Shown: in pieces, positions 18,188-53,903 of the stretch | Layout of the letters: each line of letters opens with the position of its first letter | Position numbering within the stretch: the stretch's first letter is position 1 | DNA from: a virus | Direction: 5' to 3' (one strand) | Length of the DNA: 64,000 nucleotides | IMG/VR virus record: IMGVR_UViG_3300027927_000003 | Span: 1 to 64,000 of that record | The notes under the pieces: model-generated | The model's input: the letters and a program-made list of their open reading frames with translations, nothing else | What the model was told of the DNA's origin: nothing | Database searches by the model: none | Position numbers and translations under genes: made by a program

Positions 18188-18188
18188 C

Positions 18189-35660: not shown

Positions 35661-36473
35661 ATGGCTACCAGCGCGTTCGGCGTGGACCACGGTCTCGTCT
35701 CTAAGTCCTACGTCGGTGGTGGGGTGTTCAAGCCCGCCAGCGCGCTCCGCGCCGCTGGTAAGAAGCGGGTGCCTGGCTCTTACGCTCGGTCCAAGGGTCC
35801 GACCAAGGCAGACACGAAGTTCAAGGCAGAAGCCACCAAGCTCACTCAACAGTTGCGCCACAACGAGAAGGTGATGACCGAGCCTGGTCGTAGACCTCGT
35901 TTCGATGACCCAGACTTCAAGCAGGTCAAGGTCAGGGGTCAGCGCAAGCCGGTCAACGTGTACGGCGAGAGTTCTTTCCTCAGCCGCACTCTTCCCTCAG
36001 GGGTAGGGGGCCTTACTCTCCGCACCGGTAGCAAGAGCAGTGGTCAGAGCCATGTCATCTACGACAAGACCAAATCTGGTGCGAAGAAGACGCTGAAGCA
36101 CGAGATGGCACACGCTCAGCCCAAGCGCTCGATTTATCGGATGCAGCAGATCGCTGACAGCCCGAAGAAGACCATGCGTGAAGAGGCTAGGGCTGATGCG
36201 GTTCTGGGTCACTACCGGAAGGTCAAGCCGAACAGCGCATACCAGCAGGTTGCACAGGCGCGGAACACACAGAGGAAGGTCAGGAAGACACCGATCATCG
36301 GTGGGCTCAGGGCCAAGCCGCAGAAGATGCAGTTGAAGGCTGGGCTGAAGAACATGTCTGCTGCTGGTGGTCCTCGGTACAAAGTGAAGCCCAAGGACGT
36401 AGACGCTTACCGTAAGGTCCAGAACGACATCGCTCGCAACCAGAAGCGCAACAAGCGTAGGAGCCGCTCGTGA
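35661..36473 (+). CDS. SAFG-leader protein 1: basic protein with HExxH motif (270 aa)
   Basis: ATG at 35661 after AGGAGA. Starts MATSAFGVDHGLVSK and contains TLKHEMAHAQPKR ... REEARAD. Paralog of 53256..53903. Confidence 0.75.
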   Translation: MATSAFGVDHGLVSKSYVGGGVFKPASALRAAGKKRVPGSYARSKGPTKADTKFKAEATKLTQQLRHNEKVMTEPGRRPRFDDPDFKQVKVRGQRKPVNVYGESSFLSRTLPSGVGGLTLRTGSKSSGQSHVIYDKTKSGAKKTLKHEMAHAQPKRSIYRMQQIADSPKKTMREEARADAVLGHYRKVKPNSAYQQVAQARNTQRKVRKTPIIGGLRAKPQKMQLKAGLKNMSAAGGPRYKVKPKDVDAYRKVQNDIARNQKRNKRRSRS

Positions 36474-38305
36474 CCAGCAGAGTGCCTGAGGCTGACATCC
36501 TCTACCAGGACGACCTCGCGGAGAGCGCCGAGATCAAGGACGCCGGTCCCATGATCGAGATGGGCGTCACCGGCATCAAGCGTGCTGGCGGGTATGTCGA
36601 TGAGGAGTTTCTCCCGGCGCTGCGGGGCAGGAAGGCCGTCAAGGTCTTCAAGGAGATGTCCCAGAACGACTCGATGGTCGGCGCTCTGCTGTTCGCCATC
36701 GACAAGCTGATCCGGGAAGTGGACTGGAAGGTGATCCCTTCCGACCAGACTCCTGAGGGACAGGCTGCTGCTGAGTTCCTGGAGTCGTGTAGGGATGACA
36801 TGTCCCACTCCTGGGACGATTTCATCGGTGAAGTGCTCTCCATGCTCACCTACGGCTGGAGCTGGCACGAGATCGTCTACAAGCGCCGGATCGGTCCTTG
36901 GGAGAAGGACGGCAAGAAGAAGTCCAAGTACACCGATGGACTGTTCGGCTGGCGGAAGATGCCAATCCGCTCGCAGGAGACCATGATGAAGTGGGTCTTC
37001 GATGAGTCGGGCGGGATCAAGGCGATGACCCAGATGGCCCCACCGCACTACAAGACGGTGAACATCCCCATCGAGAAGTCCCTGCTGTTCCGGACCAACC
37101 TGTCCAAGGGCAACCCCGAGGGCATGTCCCTGCTCCGTACCGCGTACCGATCCTGGTACTTCAAGAAGCGTCTGGAAGAGTTCGAGGCTATCGGTGTTGA
37201 GCGTGACCTGGCAGGTATGCCAGTGGCAAGAGTGCCCTCTGATTACCTCTCTGCGCCCAAGGGGAGCAAGCAGGCCAAGACCGTCGAGGCGTTCAAGAAG
37301 ATGGTCCGTGGTGTGCGTCGTGACGAGAACGAGGGCTTGGTGCTTCCCACTGCCTACGACCCGGACACGAAGCAGCCGCTGTTCGACTTCGAACTCATGT
37401 CGTCTGGCGGCTCTCGCCAGTTCGACACCACCGGGATCATCCAGCGGTATGAGCAGCGGATCCTGATGAGCGTGTTGGCTGACTTCATCTTGGTCGGTCA
37501 TCAGGCCAACGGGTCGTACTCTCTGCACACTGACAAGACCGGTATCTTCCGGGCGGCGTTGAACGCGATCACCAAGTCCATCGCTGACACGCTCAACCGC
37601 CATGCGGTGCCGAAGCTTTTTGAGGTCAACGGCTGGAAGCTCGATGAACTGCCTAAGTTCGAGCCCACCAACATCGACCCGCCTGACCTGAACCAGCTCG
37701 CCTCGTTCATCAGCGCTACCGCTGGTGCGGGTATGCAGTGGTTCCCCGATCCTGAGCTGGAGAAGTTCGTTCGGGACATCGCTCGCCTGCCTGAGATGAC
37801 CGATGAGACAGTGGACTTCAAGCGGGAGATGTACAACCAGCAGCAGGCGATGGAGTTCGCTGAGACTCAGATGAACGTGCTCGGCATGAAGCAGAAGGCC
37901 GAGATGACTGCGCAGGGCTTCTCTCCTGAACAGGCGCAGATGGCCTCGCAGGCTCAGACCCCGGACATGCGGGTGCAGGAGCAGCTCAACGAGGACGAGG
38001 CGCAGATGGCTCACATGCAGCATCCTGCGGGCCAAGTCGAGCAACAGCAGATGCAAGAGCAGATGGCCATGCAGAACCAGCCTGAGGAGGACTCCCCCGC
38101 TGCTCAGGCCCAGCATGAACGCGAGAAGGAGAAGATGCTCCTCTCCGAACAGCAGGAAGAGAAGCGCTTCGGGCGCGAACGCGAGAAGATGACTCTCCAG
38201 GAGCGGTTGGAGCAGGAGAAGTCCAAGCGCGAGAAGGAAAAACTGCGTGAGCAGTTGAAGGCACAGTCGAGGCGCAAGCCTCCGTCGAAGGGTGACAGGC
38301 GATGA
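36470..38305 (+). CDS. portal protein (Mu gp29/DUF935-like)
   Basis: 611 aa. Position and length fit a portal. N-terminal KVFKEMSQNDSMVGALLFAIDKLIREVDWKV pattern and a Q/E/M-rich C-terminal tail. GTGA-coupled start. Confidence 0.85.
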   Translation: MTSRVPEADILYQDDLAESAEIKDAGPMIEMGVTGIKRAGGYVDEEFLPALRGRKAVKVFKEMSQNDSMVGALLFAIDKLIREVDWKVIPSDQTPEGQAAAEFLESCRDDMSHSWDDFIGEVLSMLTYGWSWHEIVYKRRIGPWEKDGKKKSKYTDGLFGWRKMPIRSQETMMKWVFDESGGIKAMTQMAPPHYKTVNIPIEKSLLFRTNLSKGNPEGMSLLRTAYRSWYFKKRLEEFEAIGVERDLAGMPVARVPSDYLSAPKGSKQAKTVEAFKKMVRGVRRDENEGLVLPTAYDPDTKQPLFDFELMSSGGSRQFDTTGIIQRYEQRILMSVLADFILVGHQANGSYSLHTDKTGIFRAALNAITKSIADTLNRHAVPKLFEVNGWKLDELPKFEPTNIDPPDLNQLASFISATAGAGMQWFPDPELEKFVRDIARLPEMTDETVDFKREMYNQQQAMEFAETQMNVLGMKQKAEMTAQGFSPEQAQMASQAQTPDMRVQEQLNEDEAQMAHMQHPAGQVEQQQMQEQMAMQNQPEEDSPAAQAQHEREKEKMLLSEQQEEKRFGREREKMTLQERLEQEKSKREKEKLREQLKAQSRRKPPSKGDRR

Positions 38306-38718
38306 TCAGCGCGTTCGGCGTCGAGCACGGCGATGAGTTCAGCAAGCGCGAGAAAGACCCCAAGCGCGGCGGCAAGGCGTTCGGCTCTGCTGGGAAGACC
38401 GCTGCCGTGGTCGGTGGTGCTGGCGCACTACTGATCGGTCGTGGACGAGCGAACAAGATCGGCGCGGGTATCGCGCAGCGGATGGTGGGCCGTGCTCACT
38501 GGTCTGCTGGTCGAGCAGCGGAGATGCCTAAGGGCAAGCTCGCCAACGCTAGGTACACCTACGCTCGAAAGCTGGAAGACATCGCCAACAAGGGGCCTGC
38601 CAAGAACCAGGATGTTCGAGAGTGGGCTGGCCGTGCTGCTGTGGGTGGTGGCGCTGGCGGTGTCGCCGGTGGCGTGGTCTACGGGCGCAAGAAGCTCTCG
38701 GCCAAGGAAGGGCAGTAA
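38302..38718 (+). CDS. SAFG-leader protein 2: basic Gly/Ala-rich protein (138 aa)
   Basis: MISAFGVEHGDEFSK. ATGA overlap with the portal stop. Gly/Ala hydrophobic stretches GKTAAVVGGAGALLIG and AAVGGGAGGVAGGVVYG. Confidence 0.75.
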   Translation: MISAFGVEHGDEFSKREKDPKRGGKAFGSAGKTAAVVGGAGALLIGRGRANKIGAGIAQRMVGRAHWSAGRAAEMPKGKLANARYTYARKLEDIANKGPAKNQDVREWAGRAAVGGGAGGVAGGVVYGRKKLSAKEGQ

Positions 38719-38721
38719 GAG

Positions 38722-41700: not shown

Positions 41701-42270
41701 CAGAGCGCATTGCAGGCAGTTGGTAACGACGCTCCACTGGAAGAGAAGTTGAAGAAGATCGGTCCTGACGGGATGGGCTTCGACACCAGCAACGCTGGCG
41801 TGGTTGAGCTCGTGGAGAAGCCTGACATCTTCGACCGGGTGGTTGAGGATGTTCACCGGATGCGGGCGCTGAACCTGAACCGCAAGGTCTCTGAGGCTGG
41901 CGACATCCAGGTCTCTGTACGCACTGGTAGCGCACGAGAGGAAAGCAGGGAAGACCTCACCTTCGACCGCGATGAGCTGAAGCACCGAGCTGACATGATG
42001 CGAGCAGCGGCCAAGCGCGCTACTAGATCCAGCCGGGCGACTCTGGCTCGTAGGCTCGAAGACGACGCCAACACCATCGAGGGGCTGCTCTCTGAGGGCT
42101 CTGCCGCTGGCCCGAGTGATGTACGGATGGCGCTGGAGCAGACAGCACAGTCGTATGAGACTGCTCAGAAACTGGTCGAAGAGGTAGCGCGAGAGGCGAT
42201 GAGCAACACTCGCGGCCTGGAGCGAACTCGTCGGTACGAGGACGACAAGACGAAGAAGTACGGTGAGTAG
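38722..42270 (+). CDS. very large virion-module protein of unknown function (1182 aa)
   Basis: Uninterrupted high-GC3 ORF between the portal and MuF genes. No catalytic motif that I can assign. Confidence 0.85.
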   Translation: MVLTPIIKSDDPHFNHRAAQLAAEAVMKMDEDEARIFTSFVVSDVLEEDIEKNLRTLQRRLDTVVAKRIERVKKALISTTVSKGAADQEALAYAQALSALEEISKANPYDYGYRFDENDFRRDPKTGQFQTKIKHTQRRPISDRDARVVGIDQGAPGSEKRKIYNKLSREAKAQYQDEYRQISNFLGAVYQSTKNPGDTDVMVHVQGKDGSRRIVRPTGMKVELGQDYNPEQERIIGVAARPKGLNLGGASFGLTSALGAPQGRRSVEALNRAEDNFGTFSNDWTKPGDNNSNTRLYNRVAGGSKFVEQVAPYGSKLQIAGAFGRIVGEHGQEAEKVFGPATRKAGYRYRGTEKKPDTELLNSYRREVGIATRPDRLTDEDQKKIRSAQSQAELQERERKWREINEGQDTIPGRGKFTPLQEVTLSREEKGAIRTKIRDAYVKQKMEEAGPTETGIEAGRAVLLQHLQERMPDKDLYELHLDAGNTPPSEGFLIDRHGQIHAQAVGYGDDHYLPFNLKNLAALKGGEYIRTRSVGGPTSEDIYTGLMAGARRLTVTSRSGTFTINFEDDFRGGRRHNQKAHRMVRRYEQILDSVQSGSVERKDVNRDTKAMFRNEIERDYPALSDKAKREMLTTKIQEYKRDPIPTQDQEDALEQHIQAQTRGMPEPRARAIRQKILNDNANEREFFFHLNGVGYAAALEALREQFPYYITVEHVATVDPDRREFSRDKGYVEPGRNRPTQAKAGWHGTGTNKGEKVSASTVDYQNESGLYGVRTEAPKKVGEDEREAAAAKEKAAETKAENGEKDKEAATIAGRVQERKAAVKFKPEAMAIWKKISKETWGETPEQQQKVRANFPILFMDEKEAERSLEDPRVAKQLVDFVQTYRKELTTTGPQGQAAVLSYQDLTRFQAASGRIGRQPYDKATRFTSKEVPRFTETRSGARDAYKEDAPAEQVEKEAEVISEITKPTTTSKKLKEMSEAELLDELANLQNFQSALQAVGNDAPLEEKLKKIGPDGMGFDTSNAGVVELVEKPDIFDRVVEDVHRMRALNLNRKVSEAGDIQVSVRTGSAREESREDLTFDRDELKHRADMMRAAAKRATRSSRATLARRLEDDANTIEGLLSEGSAAGPSDVRMALEQTAQSYETAQKLVEEVAREAMSNTRGLERTRRYEDDKTKKYGE

Positions 42271-44597
42271 TGAGCGCACTCCCAGCAGAGGCACCGTCCC
42301 CTCCATGGGTTGAACTCCATGTTCGCCAGCCGCTCTCCCCACAGGAGCGGCTGGCGCTCGCTGCTCGAAACTCCTCAGCAGATCCGATCCTGGCCTGGAC
42401 TACCTCGCTGCTTGCCGTGCGAGAGGAGATCATTCCTCGGATCCGCAAGGAACTGGTAGACGTAGCTCTGCTGGATGAGACGGTGATCCGGCAGGCGCTG
42501 GATATCGCGTGGACAGCAGCGTTTCCGTCTATGCATCGAGCGACAGGGCCGATGATCGCAGAGGCGTACATCCGTGCCTTTCGTCAGGCCGAATCTGGTC
42601 AAGTGCCGATCCAGATGATCTACGCCCTGGCTGAAGAGCACGCTCGTCGGGTCGGCGGCTACTTTCACGAGACCTCATCGGATGCGCTGATCCAGGGCTT
42701 CAACACCTACGTGAACCGGCGTGTCCCACAACGGGCTGCGCTGGAACGGGTGCTTGATGCCTACGGTCTGACACCGCGACAGATGTCTGGACTGACCTCG
42801 GCCAAGCAGTTCGATGACAAGATCGAGTCCTCGCTTCCTCGTCGGATGAAGCAGAAGATGCTCTCCTACATCGGGAAGAGCATCCGTGATCGACTGAAGA
42901 TCTTTGCCAAGCAGGAGACGCACAACCTGGATGAGCAGGCCAAGCAGGTGGCTTGGATGTGGATGGTCCAGCACGGCAAGCTCCCTGAGACAGCGGTGAA
43001 GATGTGGCTCACCGCCAAGGATGAGAAGGTCTGTCCTGTCTGTGGCCCGCTGCATGGGATGAAGGTCGGGATCGGAGAGAAGTTCACCACCGACGACGGC
43101 AAGGAGTACTTCGTTCCCGGTGCTCACGTGAACTGCCGCTGCTCGGTGCGGCTGATGATCAACCCGTTCGAGTCGGTCAAGAAGGATCTGGAGGGACGGG
43201 AACTATTCGAGTTCAACCAGAAGCATCCGCGTGGTCAAGGTGGTCGGTTCGCTCGGAAGCCAGAGACCAAGACTGCTGACCCACGCAGGGTGGATCCCCG
43301 GGTAGAGCAGATGATCCGCGAGGCACAGAACCCTGGTCCTGAGCCTCAGCGACAACCACAGCGAGAGCCCACCGCTCCTGAACCGCTCCCGTACAAGGAG
43401 CCGGTGGCCCCTGCCCCTGGTCTGGAGGAGGCGCTGGCTGAGGAGCGGGAGCGGGCAGAAGCAGAGCGTCTACTGGCAGAGGCACAGCGCTACGAGAAGA
43501 AGCCACGAGCACTGGGACGACCACTCGGTCGTACTTTGGGTCGGCCTATCACTGGTCGTCCTGTCGGTCGGCCTATCGAGATCAAGAGCGAGGCTAGAGC
43601 GCTAGGCACGCCTGAGGGTGGTCGCGCTCTTAAGCCCAGCGTTCGTCCTGTGCCGGTAGAGGTCCAAGCGCGTGTTCGCGGTCTTCGGCCAGCAGAGGCA
43701 CGTCAGGTTGAGACTGCCCGCGCATATCTCGATGCTCGGAAGTTGTTTGCTCACTATCAGCAAGAGGCCGAACAGCGGATCGCTCGCAAGAGAAAGGTCC
43801 GCGAGGCAGAGCTGTACACGCCGGTCGCTCCGTTTGGACAGACCTCTTACTACATCGGTGACGACATCGTCATAAGCACGGCTCGGGACGAGGATGCCCC
43901 GATGGGCAAGGCTCAGTTCCGCGACACCCAGATGCACCCGCTGGACGAGGGAGAGCTGGCCCGACTGGTTCAGGAGAAGTACGAAGAAAACGTCAGCAAC
44001 CTCGTGGACGAGTTGATGTACGGCGAAGCGAACACCATCACCCGGCAGGATCCTGAAGTTCCTGGCCGGATGCTTCGGCATACTTTCACCGAGGAGGAGC
44101 TGGAGGGGATTCTCCAAGACGCTGGTATGTCGATGCTGCCTGGAGCGACACCAGGTGCCGCTGTAGAGATCGACTGGTACGACGAGAACAACGAGTTCGC
44201 TGAGATCAGCAACGCCTACTACCCAGATGAACTGGTGAAGAGCTTCTTCTCGATGGACATCGATAGTTTCGCTGTGAAGCTCTACGAGGCTGATGAGGGC
44301 TATGACACTGAAGACTTCGGGACGGAGTTCAACGGCAAGGCTTACACGATTGAAGGCCCCTTCCGGGTCGTCAGTGACTCCTATGAGAATACGTATGTTG
44401 CGCCGATGCGTCGGATCGTGGTTGAGCCCATCGTGGAGACCACGCTGCGTGAGACCACCGGCATCGAGCCTGAGGCTGAGGTCGTTGAGGACGAGGTGAT
44501 TCCCTGGCGCGAGGAGGACCGCAGAGCATCAGAGCGGAGAGCCTCAGAGGAGTGGGATCGCTACCGCAACAACAAACGTGACTGGCCCCATGCCTAG
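42270..44597 (+). CDS. MuF/SPP1 gp7-like head morphogenesis protein with long C-terminal extension
   Basis: KVCPVCGPLHGMKV ... GAHVNCRCSVRL is the Phage_Mu_F signature at about aa 250-295. About 480 further residues include GRPLGRTLGRPITGRPVGRPI. Confidence 0.85.
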   Translation: MSALPAEAPSPPWVELHVRQPLSPQERLALAARNSSADPILAWTTSLLAVREEIIPRIRKELVDVALLDETVIRQALDIAWTAAFPSMHRATGPMIAEAYIRAFRQAESGQVPIQMIYALAEEHARRVGGYFHETSSDALIQGFNTYVNRRVPQRAALERVLDAYGLTPRQMSGLTSAKQFDDKIESSLPRRMKQKMLSYIGKSIRDRLKIFAKQETHNLDEQAKQVAWMWMVQHGKLPETAVKMWLTAKDEKVCPVCGPLHGMKVGIGEKFTTDDGKEYFVPGAHVNCRCSVRLMINPFESVKKDLEGRELFEFNQKHPRGQGGRFARKPETKTADPRRVDPRVEQMIREAQNPGPEPQRQPQREPTAPEPLPYKEPVAPAPGLEEALAEERERAEAERLLAEAQRYEKKPRALGRPLGRTLGRPITGRPVGRPIEIKSEARALGTPEGGRALKPSVRPVPVEVQARVRGLRPAEARQVETARAYLDARKLFAHYQQEAEQRIARKRKVREAELYTPVAPFGQTSYYIGDDIVISTARDEDAPMGKAQFRDTQMHPLDEGELARLVQEKYEENVSNLVDELMYGEANTITRQDPEVPGRMLRHTFTEEELEGILQDAGMSMLPGATPGAAVEIDWYDENNEFAEISNAYYPDELVKSFFSMDIDSFAVKLYEADEGYDTEDFGTEFNGKAYTIEGPFRVVSDSYENTYVAPMRRIVVEPIVETTLRETTGIEPEAEVVEDEVIPWREEDRRASERRASEEWDRYRNNKRDWPHA

Positions 44598-44619
44598 CCA
44601 GAGATAGGAACATAGATAC

Positions 44620-45657
44620 ATGAGCAGGGTTGCGAAGCGGCTTTACGCCACAGACGAGACGTTCCGTGAGGTTGCCGACCTGCTTTTCGGTGGAGGAGCT
44701 GACGAGCTGGTCTCCAAGCTCTCCCCCAAGAAGGAGGAAGCAAAGCGTCAGAAGCGACAGGCTCAGGTCGGGCTCGCTTCTAACGTCGTAGGGATCACCG
44801 CTGGTACGGCGGGGCTCTCTGCTGCCCTGAAGGACGAGCGACTGAACCAGGGCGGCAAAGTCGGTCAGAAGCTCTACCGGATCGGCACCGGTATGGAGAA
44901 CGCAGCCAACAAGACCAAGATCGGTGGCAAGTACTACAAGTGGGTGGCCAAGCCTGGTGTCGCACCCAAGCTTGCCGCTGGTGCTGTCGGCCTCCAGACT
45001 GCGAACCTCGCTGGCGATGCGGTTGCCAACCGGGTGCTGTCTCGGGAGTCGAAGAAGAAGGTCTCCAAGCGCGGTGGTCGGCTGGTGCCGATCTCCAAGG
45101 CTGAGCCTGGCTCCTCTGATGTCCACTCTCTGTCCGCTGGCAAGCTGAAGCGGATCGCTACCCAGAAGGTGCTCAACGAGACCCCTGAGGTCGGTGGCAA
45201 GGTCAAGCAGTTCGTCCGAGGCAAGAAGAAGGCTGAGGTCACCAAGTCGATCACCTGGGAGGGCGAGATCTCCAAGGTGGACGCCGACAAGCGTCAGGTG
45301 TTCGGCTGGGCCTCCATCGTGGAGATGAACGGTCAACCTGTAGTTGACCTTCAAGGTGACTACATCGATATCGATGAGATCGAGAAGTCCGCATACGACT
45401 ACGTGGTGAAGTCTCGTAAGGGTGGCAACATGCACCTGCGCAACGGGACCGAGCCGGTACATGTCTCGGACATGATCGAGTCCTTCCTCGTCACTCCGGA
45501 GAAGAAGGAGAAGATGGGGCTGCCTGAGTCTGTACCTACTGGCTGGTGGGTCGGCTACCAGATCAACGACGACGAAGCCTGGAACCTGGTTAAGTCCGGT
45601 AAGCGGACTGGGTTCTCTATCCATGGTCGCGGGCAGCGGACCCCGACAGTCATCTAG
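44620..45657 (+). CDS. XkdF-like putative prohead protease with basic N-terminal extension
   Basis: The C-terminal domain ISKVDADKRQVFGWASIVEMNGQPVVDLQGDYIDIDEIEKSAYDYV ... MHL ... MIESF matches my memory of Peptidase_S78_2 (XkdF). The N-terminal ~215 aa are basic and Gly/Ala-rich. Confidence 0.75.
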   Translation: MSRVAKRLYATDETFREVADLLFGGGADELVSKLSPKKEEAKRQKRQAQVGLASNVVGITAGTAGLSAALKDERLNQGGKVGQKLYRIGTGMENAANKTKIGGKYYKWVAKPGVAPKLAAGAVGLQTANLAGDAVANRVLSRESKKKVSKRGGRLVPISKAEPGSSDVHSLSAGKLKRIATQKVLNETPEVGGKVKQFVRGKKKAEVTKSITWEGEISKVDADKRQVFGWASIVEMNGQPVVDLQGDYIDIDEIEKSAYDYVVKSRKGGNMHLRNGTEPVHVSDMIESFLVTPEKKEKMGLPESVPTGWWVGYQINDDEAWNLVKSGKRTGFSIHGRGQRTPTVI

Positions 45658-45666
45658 GAGAAGAAA

Positions 45667-46023
45667 ATGATTATCTCGGCTTTCGGGGTAGAGCACGGTG
45701 ACTTCATCAGCAAGGCTGATGAGCCGAAGTACAGCTCTGGTCGTCGCAACCTGGCCACCATCTACGGGCCTACTCACTCGATATACGCAGCGAAGAAGGG
45801 CAAGCGCGCTCGCTCCTACGGCAGATCGCTCGGTTACCAGACCGCAGGAGCTGGCGCTGGCGGCGCTCTCGGCGCTGGTATCGCTGCGGCTGCCACCCGT
45901 GGCAAGAGTGGCGGCGCCATGATGGGTGGCGGAATCGCTGGTGCTCTCGGTGGTGCCTACACCGGGAACAACCGAGCTTTCCACGCGAACAACAAGCGTG
46001 GTTACTACAAGCGCGAGGAGTGA
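45667..46023 (+). CDS. SAFG-leader protein 3: basic Gly-zipper protein (118 aa)
   Basis: MIISAFGVEHGDFISK. AGGAGAAG SD. GAGAGGALGAGIAAAA and GGAMMGGGIAGALGGAY. Confidence 0.75.
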   Translation: MIISAFGVEHGDFISKADEPKYSSGRRNLATIYGPTHSIYAAKKGKRARSYGRSLGYQTAGAGAGGALGAGIAAAATRGKSGGAMMGGGIAGALGGAYTGNNRAFHANNKRGYYKREE

Positions 46024-46025
46024 AC

Positions 46026-48509
46026 ATGCTTAGCGCGTTCGGTGTCGATCACCACTTCGAGGTCTCTAAGGCTGACGAGGTTAAGCGGCCTGAGGACAAC
46101 ACGAAGAGGAACGTCGCTATCGGCGCTGGCGCTGCTGGTGTTGGTGGAACGGCTGTCCTGGCTGGTACGAAGATGCCAGAGCACTCTCACTACTCCCGGA
46201 AGACTCGGAAGTACCTCAACTCGCTTCCTGCTGGGGTCCACGAAGTGGATACCAAGATCCTGGCCAAGAAGCCCAGGAAGCTTGGTGCTCGTAAGCAACA
46301 GGCTCCCTACGTGGCAGCGATGGCACAGGAGCGTCCCACGCCGTACTCACCTGTCCCGATCACTCGGTACAAGGACGGCATCATCCAGCGTGACAACGCG
46401 CACTCGGTGATGGCGAACAACATGAAGGGTCGCAAGACCACGATCAAGATCGAGGACGCGGATGGCTACCGCCCGTCTCGTCGTACTGGTGAAGAGCTGG
46501 TCCGTCGCGCTCAGAGCCGCTACCAGCAGAGCCGACTGAAGCGGCACACGAACCTCTCTGAGAAGAAGATCGAGGGGATCAGGGCTAAGTACAAGGACAA
46601 GTCGCGGATCGCCAACACCACCAAGCGACCGCATGGTGTGGTCGAGGAAGGCTTCAAGGTTGCTCAGAAGCCGTTCGGCGTCAAGCGAGCGCTGAGTTTC
46701 GCCAAGGCCGATGACCGGAATCGTCAGCGTGCTGCTGGTGCTGCTGCGGTTACCGGTACCGGTGTACTGGCGTCCACACCAGTACGACGGTCTGCTGCCA
46801 AGGTGGACATCAACAACGGTCAGATCAAGTCCTCAGACGCCAAGAAGATCGTCAGTCCTGGCTACCGACCTGGGAACAAGCGAGCCATCCAGGTGATGGC
46901 TCGGAACCTGGGTCATCTGGAGAACAGTCCTTCCACCGTGATCCGGTACAAGGACGGTTCCGTCATCCCTTTTGACGGTAACCACCGAGCCACTGCTCGT
47001 GTCGCTCGGGGCGACAAGAGTGTTCCGGTGAAGGTGGTTGAAGGTGGCGAGCGCCCTGCTATCAGCGCTGCTCGAAACGCATATCACGTTGCTGGGCAGC
47101 GGCTCCATCGAGCGCGGATGAACCGTGATGCTTTCAAGCCGACTGCTCGTACTGGTAAGCACGCTGGTGAGTCCAAGGTCTACTCGCGTGTAGCGAATGC
47201 CTCGCCGCTGCGCTCTGGAAGTCGAGTCGATATCGGATCGACCAAGCTGGCATCTGGTCCGACCAAGACCATGTTGCGTGGGAGGCAGGCAGCGACTGTC
47301 GGCACCGGTGTCGCGCTGCTCGGTACTGCTCAGCATCTCAGCTCGAAGAAGGAGAAGGTCGGTAAGTCTGCCAAGCCGCTGTCTCCAACTGAGATCAAGG
47401 ACAAGAAGCGCAAGCAGTCACGGATCAGCCAGGCTACTGGTGCTCTTGGTCTGGCTGCTCTAGGTGGAACTGCGCTGTCTACCCGTGGTGGACAGAAGGC
47501 ACTGGCTACTGGGTTCAAGCGGATCAATAAGCCGGTGCCCAAGAGTTTGCAGGCTCCAAAGCGTGAGAAGGGGATCAGCTCAACGGTCACGCCGTTGCTG
47601 GCTACCTCTGCTGGTCTTGGTGCTCTGGGTTCGTTCAACTTCGCCTCGTACACCCGGGCCGAAGCAGATAAGGGGAAGAGAGTGAAGAAGAACAACTACG
47701 GTGGCTACGACCACGGCAACGTCTTCGGCTCAACCACGATCTCCAAGGCTATGGAGGAGGAGATCGAGAAGTTCAAGGTTCCTGGCTCGGTGCTGAAGCC
47801 GCTCAACGCAGCCAAGCCGAAGGTGATGGGTGCGAAGAACAAGGCTCAGGCCATGGGCTCTGGTGCCAAGCACGGCTTCAAGGTTGGCCCGAGCGCGGCG
47901 ATCCCGGCTCCGATGAGCCAGTCCTTCCAGCGTGGTGCCCGAATGGGGCAGCAGGCCAACAAGGGTCTGACCTCTGCGAAGACCTTCGCCAGCCAGAACA
48001 AGGCTGCCATCGGTGCTGGTGCTACCGCTGGTGTCGCCGGTGGTCTGGTCGGTAGCCAGATGAACAAGCCGAAGCCTGGCACGATTGTCCGCAAGGAGTA
48101 CGACCCTGAGGGCAAGCGGATGAAGCGTGCTGACAACTACGAGCGGGCTGGGTACGTCGGTGCTGGTCTGCTCGGAGCTGGCGCTACTCACCAGGGTGCA
48201 AAGGCACGTAGGAACTACAAGAGCGCCAAGCCGATCAAGGCTGTGGGGATCTCCAATCTCGAACTCGGTACCAACAAGTCCAAGAAGGCTGCCGCTGAAG
48301 AGGCGTTCGATGTCTTCAAGCCTTCGGAACTGAAGCGTGCCAAGGTCGCTGGCAGGAAGGCTGCTATCCCTGCTGCGCTGATGGGCACTTCTGCTGTTGG
48401 TGCTGCATACGGGGCGAAGAAGATCGGAGACAAGAAGAAGGAAGGCGGGTCTTGGTCTCCATATGTCGCCAAGTCCGCAAGCTCTGCTTTCGGCATTGTT
48501 CATGACTGA
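46026..48509 (+). CDS. SAFG-leader protein 4: 827-aa basic multi-repeat protein (alternative GTG start 46020)
   Basis: Starts MLSAFGVDHHFEVSK and ends ...SSAFGIVHD. At least 8 Gly/Ala hydrophobic segments separated by Lys/Arg-rich linkers. Two RYKDG ... D(G/N)xH repeats. Confidence 0.8.
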   Translation: MLSAFGVDHHFEVSKADEVKRPEDNTKRNVAIGAGAAGVGGTAVLAGTKMPEHSHYSRKTRKYLNSLPAGVHEVDTKILAKKPRKLGARKQQAPYVAAMAQERPTPYSPVPITRYKDGIIQRDNAHSVMANNMKGRKTTIKIEDADGYRPSRRTGEELVRRAQSRYQQSRLKRHTNLSEKKIEGIRAKYKDKSRIANTTKRPHGVVEEGFKVAQKPFGVKRALSFAKADDRNRQRAAGAAAVTGTGVLASTPVRRSAAKVDINNGQIKSSDAKKIVSPGYRPGNKRAIQVMARNLGHLENSPSTVIRYKDGSVIPFDGNHRATARVARGDKSVPVKVVEGGERPAISAARNAYHVAGQRLHRARMNRDAFKPTARTGKHAGESKVYSRVANASPLRSGSRVDIGSTKLASGPTKTMLRGRQAATVGTGVALLGTAQHLSSKKEKVGKSAKPLSPTEIKDKKRKQSRISQATGALGLAALGGTALSTRGGQKALATGFKRINKPVPKSLQAPKREKGISSTVTPLLATSAGLGALGSFNFASYTRAEADKGKRVKKNNYGGYDHGNVFGSTTISKAMEEEIEKFKVPGSVLKPLNAAKPKVMGAKNKAQAMGSGAKHGFKVGPSAAIPAPMSQSFQRGARMGQQANKGLTSAKTFASQNKAAIGAGATAGVAGGLVGSQMNKPKPGTIVRKEYDPEGKRMKRADNYERAGYVGAGLLGAGATHQGAKARRNYKSAKPIKAVGISNLELGTNKSKKAAAEEAFDVFKPSELKRAKVAGRKAAIPAALMGTSAVGAAYGAKKIGDKKKEGGSWSPYVAKSASSAFGIVHD

Positions 48510-48547
48510 CTTGCGCGTACCTAGAGACTAAGAGTGAGGTTTAGAGA

Positions 48548-49345
48548 ATGGCACCCAGACCAGCACGCAAGCTGACCAACATGGAGATCGATGAGATCTC
48601 CCTGGTGGACAAGGGCGCAAACCAGCACGCGATGATCACCATCGCAAAGAGGGCTCCCGAGGAGGAAACGATGCCCGAGTTCTACAACGAGGATGGACAG
48701 CTCCTCGCGGAGGACGCTTCTCTCAACGACGGCGACATCATCTACGACGAGGACGGTAACGCTTACGAGTTCTCGCTCGACGCCGATGAAGAGGTTGCCG
48801 AGGAGCGTGAGCCCGAGCCTGTCGGCAAGTCCGCTTTCTTCAACACTCCCGCACCGCGCAGCAACTTCGCTGCTCAGGTGATGGAGGAGCTGTCGAAGGC
48901 ATACACCGATGACGACCGTGACGCGGTGATCGCCAAGGCTCTTGGCCGGGTCGAGGAGCTGGAGAACCAGTACTCCCAGGCCGAGCTGATCGCCAAGTCT
49001 GAGCGCGACCTTCGTCTCACCCGTGAGTACATCTCCAAGGCAGCCGAGTACAACGTGCCGGTTGACCCCGAGGAGCTTGGCCCGGTGCTCTACCGGATGG
49101 CCGAGACCATGGACTACGACGACTGCGCCGTGATCGCCAAGGCCCTCGAAGGCTCTGGCGCGATGATCATGGACGAGATCGGCTACATCGGTGGTGGCGA
49201 CAACAGCGATGTGATGAGCCAGGTTGAGCTTCACGCTCAGCAGGAGTTCGGTAAGAGCGTTGACGCAGAGAGCATCACCAAGGTGTTCGACATGTCTCCG
49301 CAGGCGTACGACGAATACCTCGCGTCACAGCGGGGCGGATACTGA
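48548..49345 (+). CDS. scaffolding protein (acidic, 265 aa)
   Basis: Lies between the protease and capsid genes. Acidic and helical. The N-terminal EIDEISLVDKGANQHA motif is recalled from protease/scaffold families. Confidence 0.7.
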   Translation: MAPRPARKLTNMEIDEISLVDKGANQHAMITIAKRAPEEETMPEFYNEDGQLLAEDASLNDGDIIYDEDGNAYEFSLDADEEVAEEREPEPVGKSAFFNTPAPRSNFAAQVMEELSKAYTDDDRDAVIAKALGRVEELENQYSQAELIAKSERDLRLTREYISKAAEYNVPVDPEELGPVLYRMAETMDYDDCAVIAKALEGSGAMIMDEIGYIGGGDNSDVMSQVELHAQQEFGKSVDAESITKVFDMSPQAYDEYLASQRGGY

Positions 49346-49366
49346 TAAGAAAGGTAGGGAACTGCT

Positions 49367-49774
49367 GTGGCGTACGAAGAGTCCATTCGGTCTATCACGC
49401 TCACGTCGGACAACACTCTCGCTGTCCGTACCGGCGTTAGCAACGCGCCTGGCTCCCCGGCTGACAACGCGGGCAACCAGTACCGCTTCGTTACGGTGAA
49501 GGGCGAGCACCTTGCTGGTCTCGCTGACGCCGACGACGTTGTCATCGGGGTTCTCCAGAACAAGCCACAGGTGCCGACTGAGGCGGCTACTGTGGCGATC
49601 CGTGGTGTCAGCAAGGTCCGCGTCGCTGGCGCGGTCTCGGCTGGTGCCAGTGTGGTGCCTGACGCCACTGGTAAGGCGGCTGCGGCTGGCGTCGGTGTTG
49701 ACGGCGTTGGTATCGCACTCGCGACGGCAACGGAGGCGGATGAACTCATCCCGGTCCTCCTTCGGCTGGGCTGA
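49367..49774 (+). CDS. head decoration/cement protein (DUF2190-like)
   Basis: 135 aa, Gly/Ala/Val-rich beta protein immediately upstream of the capsid gene. GTG start after AAGGTAGGGA. Confidence 0.65.
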   Translation: MAYEESIRSITLTSDNTLAVRTGVSNAPGSPADNAGNQYRFVTVKGEHLAGLADADDVVIGVLQNKPQVPTEAATVAIRGVSKVRVAGAVSAGASVVPDATGKAAAAGVGVDGVGIALATATEADELIPVLLRLG

Positions 49775-49789
49775 TAGGAGGATCGAGTA

Positions 49790-50782
49790 ATGCCTAACCC
49801 CACTCAGTCTGATCTTCACATCAACGTCCCGCTGACGAATGTGTCGATTGGCTACATGATCGACCGTAAGGACTTCATCGCGGACAAGGTGTTCCCGCGT
49901 GTCCCGGTCAACAAGCAGTCAGACCTGTACTGGAAGTACCGCAAGTCGGACTGGCGTCGTACTGACGCTCAGCGTCGTGCGCCTGGTACCGAGACGGTCG
50001 GAGCCGGTTGGAAGACCGACACCGGGCAGTACTACTGCCACGTCTACGGTGTCCACAAGGATCTGGATGACCAGACCCGGGCCAACGCCGACTCCTTCTG
50101 GAGCCTGGACAAGGACGCCACGCTGTTCGTCACCAACCAGCTCCTGCTTCGTCGGGACATCGACTGGAACAACACCTACTTCAAGCCGGGTGTCTGGGCC
50201 ACCGATCAGGCTGGCGGTACTGACTTCGACCCGTGGAACGACGTGGCCTCGGACCCCATCGTCCAGTTCGCGAACCTCCAGACGGAGTTCATCCGTCAGT
50301 CGGGTCGTAAGGCCAACACCCTGGTGCTCGGTGCCAACGCGATCACCACGCTGAAGAACCACCCCGACATCATTGACCGCATCAAGTACACCCAGCGCGG
50401 TGTCGTGACCGAGGATCTCCTCGCCTCGCTCTTCGATGTGGACAAGATCCTGGTCAGCTACGCGACCCAGGAGACCTCGGGCCAGGAGTTCGCCAACGGT
50501 CAGCAGCAGGACGACAACGCTGACTACCAGTTCATGAGCAACTCCAACTCGGCGCTGCTCTGCTACACCCCGTCTGCTCCGTCGCTGATGACCCCTGCGG
50601 CTGGCTACATCTTCACCTGGAACGGTTACCTCGCTGGTAACCAGTACGGCATCCGGATGAAGAACTTCCGCATGGAGCACATCGCTTCTGACCGGATCGA
50701 GGGTGAGATGACCTACGACATGAAGGTGGTCTCTCCTGAGATGGGCGTCTTCCTGTCCGATGTCAACGGCGTTACCCCGTAA
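49790..50782 (+). CDS. major capsid protein (lambda gpE-like family)
   Basis: 330 aa with no delta domain. Its position after scaffold and decoration genes and its sequence style match the Phage_cap_E family, from memory. Confidence 0.85.
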   Translation: MPNPTQSDLHINVPLTNVSIGYMIDRKDFIADKVFPRVPVNKQSDLYWKYRKSDWRRTDAQRRAPGTETVGAGWKTDTGQYYCHVYGVHKDLDDQTRANADSFWSLDKDATLFVTNQLLLRRDIDWNNTYFKPGVWATDQAGGTDFDPWNDVASDPIVQFANLQTEFIRQSGRKANTLVLGANAITTLKNHPDIIDRIKYTQRGVVTEDLLASLFDVDKILVSYATQETSGQEFANGQQQDDNADYQFMSNSNSALLCYTPSAPSLMTPAAGYIFTWNGYLAGNQYGIRMKNFRMEHIASDRIEGEMTYDMKVVSPEMGVFLSDVNGVTP

Positions 50783-50810
50783 TCGGGTAGCACCCTTTCG
50801 GGGAACTCTG

Positions 50811-50848
50811 ATGGAGGGGTCATGCTTCGGTGTGGCCCCTCCATTTTC
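50811..50848 (+). terminator. rho-independent terminator after the capsid gene
   Basis: ATGGAGGGG/CCCCTCCAT stem (50811-50819 / 50836-50844), followed by TTTTCATC. Confidence 0.7.
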
Positions 50849-50862
50849 ATCTAGGAGTGAAG

Positions 50863-51141
50863 ATGTACTCAGCGTTCGGTGTTGAGCATGGGGAGGGGTT
50901 CTCCAAGCGTGCCCCGTCCCTGAAGGCGCTGCTGTCCCCGTACAAGGGTGGGGTGCCTAGGAACGCGAAGCGGACTCCTTCTCTGGAGAACCGCCTTGCT
51001 CCGTACAAGGGAGCTGTCCCTAAGTCCAAGGGGATCGATCAACTGAACCCGGCCAACCGACCGCTGACCATGAAGCTCCGCTCAGCACGTCGGAACGCTG
51101 CTTTCGGTAGGCAGCCCAAGCCTGGAGAGGCAATGCGATGA
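50863..51141 (+). CDS. SAFG-leader protein 5 (92 aa, basic)
   Basis: ATG at 50863 after AGGAGTGAAG. MYSAFGVEHGEGFSK. Internal repeat L(S/A)PYKG(G/A)VP(R/K). Confidence 0.7.
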   Translation: MYSAFGVEHGEGFSKRAPSLKALLSPYKGGVPRNAKRTPSLENRLAPYKGAVPKSKGIDQLNPANRPLTMKLRSARRNAAFGRQPKPGEAMR

Positions 51142-51473
51142 GTTACTCAGCGTTCGGTGTTGATCACGGTGGTGAGATCAGCAAGGGCTTGCCTAGCGCG
51201 CTGCGATCAGGTTATCGAGCAGGCTCAGGCACACAGGCAATCCGACAGAACAACCGGATCGCTGCTCACAAGTATGGTCGCGAAGCCGCGAGGAATCTGA
51301 GCGGTCAGAAGAACCCCAAGGCTGCGTTGCAGAATCCCCAGTGGGGTTCCAGTGCGCAGACTGCTTCGCATCGCATCCAGAGTGGCAAGACCCAGAAGGG
51401 CTTCTTCAGGCAGGGTCTGAGCGGTCCTGGCGGTCGCAGACTCAACAAGCCCAACGGATTCGGACTGGAGTAA
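51138..51473 (+). CDS. SAFG-leader protein 6 (111 aa, basic)
   Basis: MSYSAFGVDHGGEISK. ATGA overlap with the previous family member. Confidence 0.7.
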   Translation: MSYSAFGVDHGGEISKGLPSALRSGYRAGSGTQAIRQNNRIAAHKYGREAARNLSGQKNPKAALQNPQWGSSAQTASHRIQSGKTQKGFFRQGLSGPGGRRLNKPNGFGLE

Positions 51474-51476
51474 GAA

Positions 51477-52010
51477 ATGCCATCAATCCTTCGTGATCTC
51501 CCGGCTGTTGCCTGGGTCGCCGGTAAGAACTTCAACTTCAAGGGGAAGTCGTACCAGGTCGGGGACGAGGTTCCTGAGATCAATGAGTTCCCTCGCCTAG
51601 AAGTCTTCGTCCGGACCCGTACGGTGATCCCGGTCGTGGACTCTATTGAAGACACTCCATTCCAGTTCCGGCACACGGTGATGACTCGGGAGCGTGCTCA
51701 GCACAAGCTCAGCATCGGTCATCCCGCTGGTGGCCCCTCTGACCGGAAGCACTCGGAGACGACTGTTCGGGATCTGGGTAATACCTCCGCAGAGCAGGAG
51801 TCCGCTGAGGAGGTCGATGAGAACGAGTTCAACCCTGCCAACCACTCCATCGATGAGGTCATGGAGTACGTCGAGGAGAACCCTGACGAGGTTCTCTCGG
51901 TCTACGCCCTCGAAGAGCAGGGCAAGGACCGTCCCCGCCTGAAGAAGAAGCTGGACGAGATCCTCAACCGCCAGGCTGAGGAAGAGAACGAGGAGTCTGA
52001 CAATGAGTGA
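51477..52010 (+). CDS. hypothetical head-module protein (177 aa)
   Basis: ORF track entry with an acidic C-terminus. GGAG SD. Confidence 0.75.
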   Translation: MPSILRDLPAVAWVAGKNFNFKGKSYQVGDEVPEINEFPRLEVFVRTRTVIPVVDSIEDTPFQFRHTVMTRERAQHKLSIGHPAGGPSDRKHSETTVRDLGNTSAEQESAEEVDENEFNPANHSIDEVMEYVEENPDEVLSVYALEEQGKDRPRLKKKLDEILNRQAEEENEESDNE

Positions 52011-52344
52011 GAACCAGAACGCTGAGTACGACCCGAACGCCGAGCGCGTGGACGACCAGCGCGAAGGCACCATCAAGGATGGCGAGGCTCGTCGCGAGCA
52101 GGAGCGAGCGATCCGCGAGGCTGAGGACGCTGGTCGTCCTGGTACCGGTCTCCCCGACGAGGTTCTGGTAGACGGGCCTTCCAAGCTCGCCCACGAGGAC
52201 ACTCCGGTGCGCTCCTTCAAGGAGGCCGAGCTTGCCGAGACCCGCGACGGTCGTGACTTCGAGGGTGCTCCCTCGGCACGTGACCTTCGTGACCGTGAGC
52301 GCGAGGAGCGCGCTGAGGAGCGCGAAGAGCGTCGCGAGGCGTAA
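52003..52344 (+). CDS. hypothetical acidic/Arg-rich protein (113 aa)
   Basis: GAGGAG SD. 8-nt overlap with the previous gene. Confidence 0.65.
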   Translation: MSENQNAEYDPNAERVDDQREGTIKDGEARREQERAIREAEDAGRPGTGLPDEVLVDGPSKLAHEDTPVRSFKEAELAETRDGRDFEGAPSARDLRDREREERAEEREERREA

Positions 52345-52357
52345 GTAAGGAGAGGAC

Positions 52358-52837
52358 ATGTCAGCTACCTACGTAGGCCCCGACTCATCGGACAAGGACG
52401 CGGTTCGGTTCTTGCTCGGTGATACTGACATGTCCTCTCCCCTGGTCACTGACGAAGAGATCACCTGGGTCCTGAGCAAGTGGATGCCAGTTCACGGCAC
52501 TATCGAGTACGCCGCCGCTGCCGTGGCTGAGTCCATCGCTGCCAGGTTCGCGAAGGAGGCCAACTTCTCCGCAGATGGCGTCTCCATCTCACTGGCCAAC
52601 CTTGGCACCCAGTTCCGCGAACTTGCTGCCTCTCTGCGGAGTCAGCACAAGAGTCTGCTCGTCGGTGGGCTACCAGATGTGGGCGGCATCTCCACCGGCG
52701 AGCAGTCTGATCCGAGCGTCAAGCCGCTGGACATGGGGACCGGGATGCACGACCACCCCGAGGCTGGTCGGCAGTCGTACGGTCAGAACGACTACGTGAA
52801 CGGTTACTACGACCCGTACGAGCAGCCAGGAGTCTGA
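52358..52837 (+). CDS. head-tail adaptor (gp6/SPP1 gp15-like)
   Basis: AAGGAGAGG SD. The N-terminal DAVRFLLGDTD ... LVTDEEI pattern is typical of head-tail connector proteins. Confidence 0.7.
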   Translation: MSATYVGPDSSDKDAVRFLLGDTDMSSPLVTDEEITWVLSKWMPVHGTIEYAAAAVAESIAARFAKEANFSADGVSISLANLGTQFRELAASLRSQHKSLLVGGLPDVGGISTGEQSDPSVKPLDMGTGMHDHPEAGRQSYGQNDYVNGYYDPYEQPGV

Positions 52838-52839
52838 TA

Positions 52840-53259
52840 GTGAGCGTCTACGGGATTTCATCCCGCGCTCGTGACTACATCCGCAGGCGCGCCTCTTACA
52901 CCATGGAGGCGACCTGTCGGATCGAACGGGTGCTCCCACCTGTCTTTGACCAGACCTCAGGCAGGGCTACATCTGGCTCGCGTACGACGATCTATGAAGG
53001 CAAGTGCCGGATCTGGGAAGTCAACGCTGGTAGTGGCGTGGTCAACATCGGTGACGACGACATCTTGATGCCCACTACCCAGCTCTCCTTGCCTTGGGAC
53101 ATCGATCCGATTCCTGATCGCAAGGACCAGGTGCTGATCACTGATCACGACTCAGACTCTTCGATGATCGGTCAGCGGTTCGAGATCCAGTCTCACGTGA
53201 AGGCCGGTGACCTCCGAGCAACCCGGCGCTTCACAGTCCTGGGATTCGATCAGCGATGA
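52840..53259 (+). CDS. head closure/stopper protein (SPP1 gp16-like)
   Basis: 139 aa. The pattern C.I ... G ... LSLPW ... D.VLI ... FEI and its position fit this family. Confidence 0.65.
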   Translation: MSVYGISSRARDYIRRRASYTMEATCRIERVLPPVFDQTSGRATSGSRTTIYEGKCRIWEVNAGSGVVNIGDDDILMPTTQLSLPWDIDPIPDRKDQVLITDHDSDSSMIGQRFEIQSHVKAGDLRATRRFTVLGFDQR

Positions 53260-53903
53260 TCAGCGCATTCGGTATTGAACACGGGGTCATCAGCAAGTCG
53301 ATGATCAAGCCTGGTGTGTACCGGGCTGCCTCTTCATTGTCTGGTGCAGAGCGCACAGGCTTGAAGGCTGGCATCAAGCAGGCCAAAGCAGGATACGCTG
53401 ACGACATCTTCCCCACGCGGTACAACCGCACAACTAAGCAGCCACTTGGACATGCCCCAAGCGCCAACGCCTACGGCGGTCGAAAGCTCCATGGCAAGAA
53501 TGGTCCTCGGTGGGGCGAGAACAGGGTGGAGTGGAAATCGCCTACTGATCCAGGTGCTAAGACCACGCTGACAAACGGTGCTGACTCCACCGCAGGTGGC
53601 AGGGCGTTCGCCACCTCTAATCGCGGGACTGGCGTGATCCAGATGTATGGGAAGCCCGGAGGCACGATCAAGGGCACGCCTTCTTCTGAGGTACTTCGTC
53701 ATGAACGGCGACACATCGCTCCCAAGCGCAACCCGGTCCGTTGGCGAGAGCGCAGGGCCAGTGATCTAGTACGCGGGCGTGAAGAAGGGCGTGCTGACTT
53801 CGGTGTTCCTCGTGACCATGAGTATGGAGGCAGCCCTGAGTTCCGCGCAGGCTATGAAGAGGTACAGCGCAAGATGGCTGCGGCGAGACGGAGGAAGCAA
53901 TGA
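53256..53903 (+). CDS. SAFG-leader protein 7: basic protein with HExxH motif (215 aa)
   Basis: MISAFGIEHGVISK. ATGA overlap with the stopper gene. EVLRHERRHIAPKR ... REEGRAD. Paralog of 35661..36473. Confidence 0.75.
   Translation: MISAFGIEHGVISKSMIKPGVYRAASSLSGAERTGLKAGIKQAKAGYADDIFPTRYNRTTKQPLGHAPSANAYGGRKLHGKNGPRWGENRVEWKSPTDPGAKTTLTNGADSTAGGRAFATSNRGTGVIQMYGKPGGTIKGTPSSEVLRHERRHIAPKRNPVRWRERRASDLVRGREEGRADFGVPRDHEYGGSPEFRAGYEEVQRKMAAARRRKQ

Follow-up and report, generated by a model that had tools for sequence, protein, structure and literature searches.

A two-part SAFG tag on basic proteins of a soil phage head module as a candidate capsid-targeting and processing signal

The DNA analysed here, referred to as the window, comprises positions 1-64,000 of IMG/VR record IMGVR_UViG_3300027927_000003 and represents an uncultured soil phage. 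It encodes a set of proteins that share a short peptide tag with the core S-A-F-G-[VI]-x-H, in which x is usually Asp or Glu. Six-frame translation identified seven starts on the + strand (35661, 38302, 45667, 46026, 50863, 51138 and 53256) that encode M-x(1-2)-SAFG[VI][ED]H, and at all seven starts [VIF]SK follows 1-4 residues after the core. The near-identical beginnings of these seven open reading frames (ORFs) had been pointed out in a preliminary description of the sequence and are well supported. The 7-residue core is expected by chance 0.0003 times per window in six frames, the back-translated core pattern gave no match in 100 dinucleotide-preserving shuffles, and a tag profile scored the seven sites at 27-36 bits while the next best stretch in the window stayed below 3 bits. 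Two further sites had been missed by that description. An eighth copy forms the C-terminus of an 827-amino-acid protein (..YVAKSAS-SAFGIVH-D followed by the stop codon, nucleotides 48465-48506), and a related internal VGK-SAFF is found in the scaffold-like protein p265 (nucleotides 48821-48841). All tag copies, seven N-terminal and one C-terminal, lie inside the 18-kb head block of the 64-kb window.

The head block begins with the large terminase gene, followed by the genes for T1, the portal protein, T2, an 1182-amino-acid protein, a 775-amino-acid Mu-F protein and an XkdF-type serine protease. After the protease come T3, the 827-amino-acid protein, p265, a 135-amino-acid protein, the major capsid protein, T5 and T6, then four small proteins including DUF6093, T7 and Neck1 and, further on, the tape-measure protein. 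The tagged proteins are numbered T1 to T7 in this order, but the fourth is called the 827-amino-acid protein throughout to keep it apart from phage T4. All seven are encoded on the + strand. T1 (35661..36473, 270 residues, isoelectric point (pI) 11.0) lies between terminase and portal and carries the tag MATSAFGVDHGLVSK at nucleotides 35661-35705. T2 (38302..38718, 138 residues, pI 10.6, 38% Gly+Ala) starts with an ATGA overlap with the portal stop codon and carries MISAFGVEHGDEFSK at 38302-38346. Directly 3' of the protease gene follow T3 (45667..46023, 118 residues, pI 10.2), with the tag MIISAFGVEHGDFISK at 45667-45714, and then the 827-amino-acid protein (46026..48509, pI 10.7), with an N-terminal tag at 46026-46070 and the C-terminal tag already mentioned. 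T5 (50863..51141, 92 residues, pI 11.3, tag at 50863-50907) is located directly 3' of the major capsid gene and shares an ATGA overlap with T6 (51138..51473, 111 residues, pI 11.5, tag at 51138-51185). The last of the series is T7 (53256..53903, 215 residues, pI 10.7, tag at 53256-53297). The reported size range of 92-827 residues and the strongly basic character (pI 10.2-11.5) thus hold for all seven, and the untagged head neighbours are mostly acidic. The reported translational coupling was likewise verified, as ATGA/GTGA overlaps connect tagged genes with the portal gene, DUF6093 and adjoining genes. The statement that the protein bodies are mostly unrelated to each other is correct for the other pairs but not for T1 and T7, which are paralogues (29% identity, E 2e-12) with a common HExxH..PKR..EExRAD motif.

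The tag copies differ considerably at the DNA level. Serine is encoded four times by AGC and four times by TCN codons, glycine by GGC, GGG or GGT and valine by GTG, GTC, GTA or GTT. The mean pairwise nucleotide identity of the 21-nucleotide core is 72%, with individual copies being 57-90% identical. Since serine is drawn from both the AGC and the TCN codon families, selection acts on the peptide and not on the DNA, and the case for this is stronger than the synonymous changes listed in the preliminary description had suggested. A role at the DNA or RNA level, either as a recombination linker or as a translation-initiation element, was considered and is ruled out by the codon variation.

Metagenomic loci fetched from IMG/VR (designated L with a number) served as relatives, and more than 100 IMG/VR contigs share the head module. 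In 115 fetched loci, 159 N-terminal, 43 C-terminal and 10 internal non-redundant tag copies were found. The earlier picture of an N-terminal leader is therefore accurate for the seven N-terminal copies of the window but incomplete, as the element consists of two parts and also occurs at C-termini and inside proteins. Its second part is a lysine site, for which phi denotes a hydrophobic residue, phi-[SA]-K the strict and phi-x-K the loose form. The N-terminal version reads M-x(1-2)-SAFG[VI][DE]H-G-x(0-4)-[VIF][SEA]K and is followed by the cargo, the C-terminal version consists of the cargo followed by phi-x-K-x(0-4)-SAFG[VI]xH-x(0-13)-stop, and the internal version is located at fusion junctions of two cargo genes (for example ..KKVSK-RDTE-SAFGVEH-GE-VSK-LFG..). 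The lysine site is confined to the immediate surroundings of the core: of 141 N-terminal tags, 104 have phi-[SA]-K within the 10 residues that follow the core and 1-4 have it in each later bin, and of 40 C-terminal tags, 39 have phi-x-K within the 10 residues that lead up to the core and 0-4 have it further away. Altogether, 130 of 141 N-terminal and 39 of 40 C-terminal tags have phi-x-K between core and cargo, and in the six internal copies listed from the loci the core is flanked by phi-x-K on either side. Proteins with multiple tags carry two to four of them (P0132 and P0124 three each), and in P0059 (399 residues) each of the four copies follows the pattern phi-x-K-SAF[GN]..H..phi-x-K. In most internal copies a lysine directly precedes SAFG. 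The sole constant architecture is a core plus a lysine site between core and cargo, which is the layout expected of a detachable tag. The peptides MISAFGVEHGEISKA… and …VKKSAFGVEHEVEKS… are named as candidate protease substrates.

The ends of the tag differ between the N- and C-terminal forms. The acidic position of the core is Asp (G-V-D) in 88 and Glu (G-V-E) in 62 of the 159 N-terminal copies, and it is looser at C-termini (31 of 43 acidic versus 150 of 159, p = 1.5e-4). Among the 12 non-acidic C-terminal copies, which have for example V, Q, N or Y at this position, five end with His-Asp-stop, as does the copy of the window (48483-48506). A separate regularity was observed for the leader that precedes the N-terminal core (window and L001-L196). 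Of 117 M-x leaders, 115 have a bulky second residue, so that the methionine should be kept, and of 22 leaders with three residues, 19 have Ser, Thr, Ala or Pro there, so that the methionine should be removed (Fisher p = 2.6e-18). After methionine excision, SAFG would be preceded by exactly two residues in 134 of the 139 leaders with a length of 2-3 residues.

The distribution of the tag follows the capsid protein. Of the 62 loci with a capsid protein at least 54% identical to that of the window, 60 carry the tag, with L047 and L051 as the exceptions, and none of the 16 loci with a capsid protein of at most 46% identity does. L007, which had first been scored as tagless, carries a C-terminal SAFGIYH, and one divergent sub-clade (L059, L060, L062) uses NAFGV.H in place of SAFGV.H. 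At least two tags are found in 88 of 116 sequences examined, and the window has eight. The core head genes are syntenic with those of the relatives (45-80% identity). The tagged genes occupy variable slots, which follow the protease gene, the capsid gene or p177 or lie around DUF6093. Between phages with approximately 75% identical capsid proteins, BLAST mostly does not detect their bodies, while the tag is invariant. In L102, L168, L172 and L194, tagged genes are located in stretches without any homolog of the head, neck or tail proteins of the window.

A scan with a leader profile and a check of synteny had been proposed in the preliminary description. In addition to the synteny among relatives, a profile search of 1.84 billion representative proteins returned 402 clusters at E <= 0.001. 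The best 150 of the 402 matches are 51-399 residues long and nearly all match from residue 1, and all matches whose sequences were read are small basic proteins without a known function. None of 48 scanned tagged proteins contained a Pfam domain, and the tagged proteins of the window gave no family match in Pfam, PHROGs or NCBIfam. The four core variants were not found in the full text of the searched literature, which agrees with the preliminary description, in which the motif was not recognised from any described system. The tag is absent from 50,697 deposited phage genomes, in which tblastn with the consensus tag produced only chance matches in helicases and megablast with the head block returned no match. 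The best cultured match of the capsid protein is a Microbacterium phage with only 42.5% identity, followed by Pseudomonas and Rhizobium phages with 39-40%, and the earlier assumption of an actinophage is not supported. No prophage relative was detected when 185,579 species genomes were scanned with the capsid protein; one 41%-identical contig of a metagenome-assembled genome gave no host clue. An identical copy of T7 is present on a 76-kb metagenomic contig.

The only protease domain of the head block belongs to the Peptidase_S78_2/XkdF type. The prohead serine protease (44620..45657, + strand) contains Peptidase_S78_2 (PF14550) at residues 216-340 (Pfam E 2.6e-19), and its His (GGxMH) and Ser (GFS[IV]xG) are invariant in 42 homologs. 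It is the candidate enzyme for processing of the tag. Proteases of this broad family cleave behind basic residues: the HK97 protease cuts between K103 and S104 (PMC10275583), and the phi12 protease accepts K/R at the P1 position (PMC8569155). An EISK sequence before the protease domain was considered as a self-cleavage site and rejected, as distant relatives without tags also conserve it and it belongs to the domain. The N-terminal portion of approximately 215 residues (44620-45265) is a basic Gly/Ala-rich module that resembles tagged cargo and exists as a separate untagged gene in L047 (7864-8502). Among relatives with this capsid type the protease ranges from 234 to 598 residues, and cargo modules seem to be fused to it in some phages. 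Such fusions suggest a second route for loading cargo.

The second conspicuous component is p265 (48548..49345, + strand), an acidic scaffold-like protein with a pI of 4.1. Its VGK-SAFF site lies in an acidic variable linker as E[LMP]xxVGK-SAFF and is kept by nearly all relatives of the main clade; in L005 the position is occupied by AVAK-SAFG, and the site is missing from both tagless relatives, L047 and L051. Sites of the phi-[SA]-K type are enriched in p265 (six observed versus 0.5 expected) and in the protease (six versus 1.5), with a possible contribution of helical bias to these numbers, and the capsid protein has none. At its N-terminus (48548-48640, MEIDEISLVDKGANQHAMITIAKRA), p265 matches positions 350-399 of phrog_80, a stretch located behind the protease domain in proteins that combine protease and scaffold, and therefore the genes of T3 and the 827-amino-acid protein appear to be inserted within a protease-scaffold unit that is single elsewhere. 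The major capsid protein (49790..50782, + strand) is lambda-E-like (phrog_1005) and untagged and is a candidate docking surface for the tag.

The bodies of individual tagged proteins provide hints at the nature of the cargo. T1 contains HEMAH..PKR..EEARAD and T7 contains HERRH..PKRNP..REEGRAD. In this pair an invariant HExxH-x2-PKRN is followed approximately 20 residues later by REEGRAD, with E-x-x-x-D as in gluzincin metallopeptidases, and the predicted order of secondary structure elements is strands, HExxH helix and Glu helix. An AlphaFold2 model of T7 was weak (predicted local distance difference test (pLDDT) score 67, predicted template modelling (pTM) score 0.42) and gave no PDB match at E <= 0.001, so that the proposed gluzincin-like fold is read from motifs and the order of secondary structure elements. 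T1 and T7 may represent a zinc peptidase that is delivered as cargo. The possibility that these HExxH proteins process the tag themselves was rejected, as the close tag-bearing relatives L199, L201, L203 and L215 (the last of which comes from the same contig as L001, which has five tags) contain no gene in the T1 slot between terminase and portal, and as only 18 homologue clusters of T7 stand against approximately 400 tagged clusters. The T2 ortholog is tagged in L215. In L199 (6824-7390) it is extended by 38 residues at the N-terminus and its tag is decayed, with ASPFGVPRD..AEFGK where SAFGVEH..EFSK would stand, which makes it a natural example of tag loss. The 827-amino-acid protein is a fusion; L015/L016 encode its two parts as separate genes, of which the first is N-tagged and the second C-tagged. 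It contains eight uncharged Gly/Ala-rich segments of 16-28 residues with very basic linkers between them; T3 has two such segments, T2 has one, and similar ones are found in the tape-measure protein. These segments may be membrane-active or self-associating elements.

The large terminase gene occupies 34042-35550, and the portal protein (36470..38305, + strand, phrog_113) is untagged. The 1182-amino-acid protein (38722-42270) always lies between portal/T2 and the Mu-F-domain protein in relatives, where it is kept at 24-46% identity, and it gave no match in Pfam, PHROGs or NCBIfam. The 775-amino-acid protein (42270..44597, + strand) has a Mu-F/SPP1 gp7-like head-morphogenesis domain and no tag. 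The 135-amino-acid protein (49367..49774, + strand) is a conserved, untagged head-module neighbour that belongs to phrog_673, a family annotated as head scaffolding in PHROGs, but its role is uncertain and the acidic p265 looks more scaffold-like. Upstream of the head block, a replication block (10313-19128) encodes a DnaB-like helicase, a primase, a DNA polymerase and a Cas4-like nuclease, and a tRNA-Tyr (GTA) gene is located at 14447-14528, just upstream of the DNA polymerase gene. A tail-fibre-like ORF (28579-30267), which matches several tail-fibre families including one described as collagen-like, is located upstream of the terminase gene and apart from the tail genes, which come after the tape-measure protein.

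These observations are probably best accounted for, although the case is well short of secure, by a model in which cargo is docked in the prohead through the core and is afterwards detached by the head protease, which would make the tag a new variant of phage-T4-style capsid-targeting sequences (CTS). The core would act as a short docking peptide through which highly basic and rapidly evolving accessory proteins are brought to a conserved component of the prohead, be it the shell interior, the scaffold or the protease. The phi-x-K on the cargo side would serve as the cut site for the HK97/XkdF-type serine protease, with lysine at P1, and cleavage after assembly would free the cargo within the head. 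As a modular element, the tag could be placed at the N-terminus (core, phi-S-K, cargo), at the C-terminus (cargo, phi-x-K, core) or between cargoes. The freed basic proteins would be packed with the DNA and would probably be ejected into the host like the internal proteins of phage T4. The model is based on the motif, its conservation at the peptide level, the three positions, the placement of phi-x-K, the related site in the scaffold-like protein and the protease gene. We infer docking, cleavage, capsid location and ejection of the tagged proteins from this architecture and from the analogy with phage T4. The cargo or processing tag proposed in the preliminary description thus remains the best explanation and has been strengthened by the conservation of the tag among relatives, its three positions, the lysine site, the p265 site and the protease, while capsid location, cleavage and binding are argued by analogy.

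Several observations weigh against this model. The lysine specificity of the XkdF-type protease is an assumption that extends what holds for related enzymes of the family, and the EISK that immediately precedes the protease domain belongs to the fold. The enrichment of phi-[SA]-K in p265 could simply result from amphipathic helices. One tag-bearing sub-clade (L048-L054, L061, L078) has tags without the SAFF site of p265; a strict coupling of the two was therefore rejected and the coupling of scaffold and cargo is only partial. The tagged genes of L102 and L168 lie approximately 10 kb upstream of the terminase gene and outside the head-neck block, a region in which the window has none. Finally, no cultured relative of the window phage was found among deposited phage genomes.

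The placement of the lysine sites could also be explained if the tag were a pure protease recognition and cleavage module without targeting, a propeptide or linker whose removal would separate or activate basic or membrane-active proteins that might be toxic, with the cargo entering the head by other means or working outside of it. The tags at every junction of P0059, P0132 and P0124 resemble the sites of viral polyproteins, the lysine before SAFG in most internal copies fits the K/S cut of HK97, and p265, an expected substrate of the protease, has its own VGK-SAFF. This explanation is nevertheless rather unlikely, as only two residues precede the N-terminal core and often 0-2 follow the C-terminal one. 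For cleavage by itself, an invariant 7-residue core would bring no benefit at one of the two chain ends, where a cut removes little or nothing, and the only feature common to the N-terminal, C-terminal and internal forms is the core with a cut site on the cargo side. The opposite assumption, that the tag is retained uncut as a structural anchor, for instance as a strand on the shell interior, the portal or a partner protein or in co-assembly of an inner body, would work at any position and is in line with a small, hydrophobic core with invariant Phe and His. The rule for leader lengths (134 of 139), together with the relaxed acidic position and the His-Asp-stop of C-terminal copies, suggests a pocket that reads chain termini. 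Retention leaves unexplained, however, why phi-x-K is found on the cargo side only and why internal copies are flanked by it on both sides, and is considered improbable.

Reading of the tag by a host protease, chaperone or export system has a precedent in the host enzyme that cuts a common N-terminal motif of phage head proteins (80alpha/Prp), a case mentioned in PMC8569155. The restriction of the tag to one phage clade, in which it co-occurs with a related site in the p265 of the phage itself, makes a host factor very improbable, as do the C-terminal and internal forms, which misfit an N-terminal export or L27-type signal. The profile matches point in the same direction, with the best 150 of 402 being confined to 51-399 residues and every one read being small and basic. 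Next to no credence is given to the idea that the tag is a by-product of recombination, a gene-boundary linker for the shuffling of cargo without a function as a peptide. It would account for the variable slots of tagged genes, for their differences between close relatives and for fusions and splits located precisely at tags, but not for an invariant peptide encoded by DNA that is only 57-90% identical and uses both serine codon families.

The two-part tag (7-residue core and lysine site) is sharply defined and previously undescribed, and it characterizes a clade of uncultured soil phages. To our knowledge, capsid-targeting signals are well defined only for phage T4 and partly for phage P1 and the giant phages, and we know of mostly no established route by which accessory and ejected proteins enter the head of ordinary HK97-type tailed phages. 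The relatives offer natural variants for the analysis of this question, including N-terminal, C-terminal and internal placements, fusions, splits, a decayed tag and two tagless relatives. If the proposed docking and release are correct, many small basic phage proteins that resist annotation would be marked as capsid cargo, virion-internal and ejected proteins could be predicted from sequence by a simple rule, and a portable tag for loading proteins into phage capsids would be available. A more specific version, in which the SAFG core is an orientation-independent zip code that docks in a pocket on the inner face of the HK97-fold shell and the flanking lysine sites release the cargo, is a bold proposal that we consider rather unlikely. 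If true, it would represent a phage version of encapsulin cargo loading with programmable loading and freeing of proteins in heads, and it would deliver a set of uncharacterized effectors into the host that include an HExxH enzyme and Gly/Ala-rich basic proteins, which perhaps act on membranes.

Comparison with known systems places the tag outside each of those named in the preliminary description (phage T4 internal proteins and Alt, P1 Dar, encapsulin); neither the gp21 site nor an S77 protease nor an encapsulin shell is found here. In phage P1, the antirestriction proteins of the Dar system (DarA/Hdf-dependent) are also loaded into the head during morphogenesis and ejected, but loading uses specific partner proteins and N-terminal regions and there is no short motif common to all cargo. 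Encapsulin cargo peptides are likewise short terminal peptides that function at either end of diverse cargo, and their docking site is the inside of an HK97-fold shell. Portal, tail and protease are absent from encapsulins, whereas the tag of the window is flanked by terminase, portal, neck and tape-measure genes; moreover, encapsulin peptides remain uncleaved and their consensus is unrelated to the tag, whose docking to the shell is hypothetical. The staphylococcal phage 80alpha resembles the present case in having a conserved N-terminal peptide on different head proteins that is proteolytically removed. Its motif, an L27-like N-terminal extension ending in Phe-Ala, mimics the ribosomal protein L27 and is cut by the host cysteine protease Prp on capsid and scaffold proteins. 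The tag lacks such an L27-like Phe-Ala motif and has no sequence similarity to that of 80alpha.

Parallels also exist for the proteolytic step. The giant phages employ one head protease (phiKZ gp175, SPN3US gp245) for many head and ejection proteins with the consensus S/A/G-x-E. This consensus formally fits the G-V-E of the core, which is present in 62 of 159 N-terminal copies, but not the 88 copies with G-V-D or the other residues at C-termini. Giant-phage propeptides are also long and lack a fixed 7-residue core, and the protease family differs. The S78 family of HK97 is part of the same broad serine protease family as the enzyme of the window, which is encoded beside cargo genes and has both the catalytic His and Ser. 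A candidate HK97-like site with Lys at the presumed P1 and Ser, Ala or Gly at P1' is found in the tag, and the scaffold-like p265 has a related one. The substrate in HK97 is the delta domain of the capsid protein itself, whereas in the window phage the capsid protein has no such site and accessory proteins carry it together with the invariant core.

The CTS of phage T4 (IPI, IPII, IPIII and Alt) differs from the tag in several respects. Its leaders end with (L/I)-x-E, a rule that the tag fails with a Gly three residues before the acid and with Asp as the more common acid, and its protease is the S77 enzyme gp21 and not an XkdF/Peptidase_S78_2 enzyme. Unlike phage T4, the window phage has a siphovirus-like genome of approximately 76 kb with a lambda-E-like capsid protein, and its tag is also used at C-termini and internally. 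Other features are shared. In phage T4, a short leader is also attached to otherwise unrelated, basic proteins, as are the seven N-terminal copies described here, whose bodies are unrelated except for T1 and T7. The phage T4 leader functions both as an address and as a propeptide cleaved by the prohead protease gp21, and its proteins are co-packaged with the DNA, dispensable and fast-evolving. The CTS of phage T4 is the functionally closest known system.

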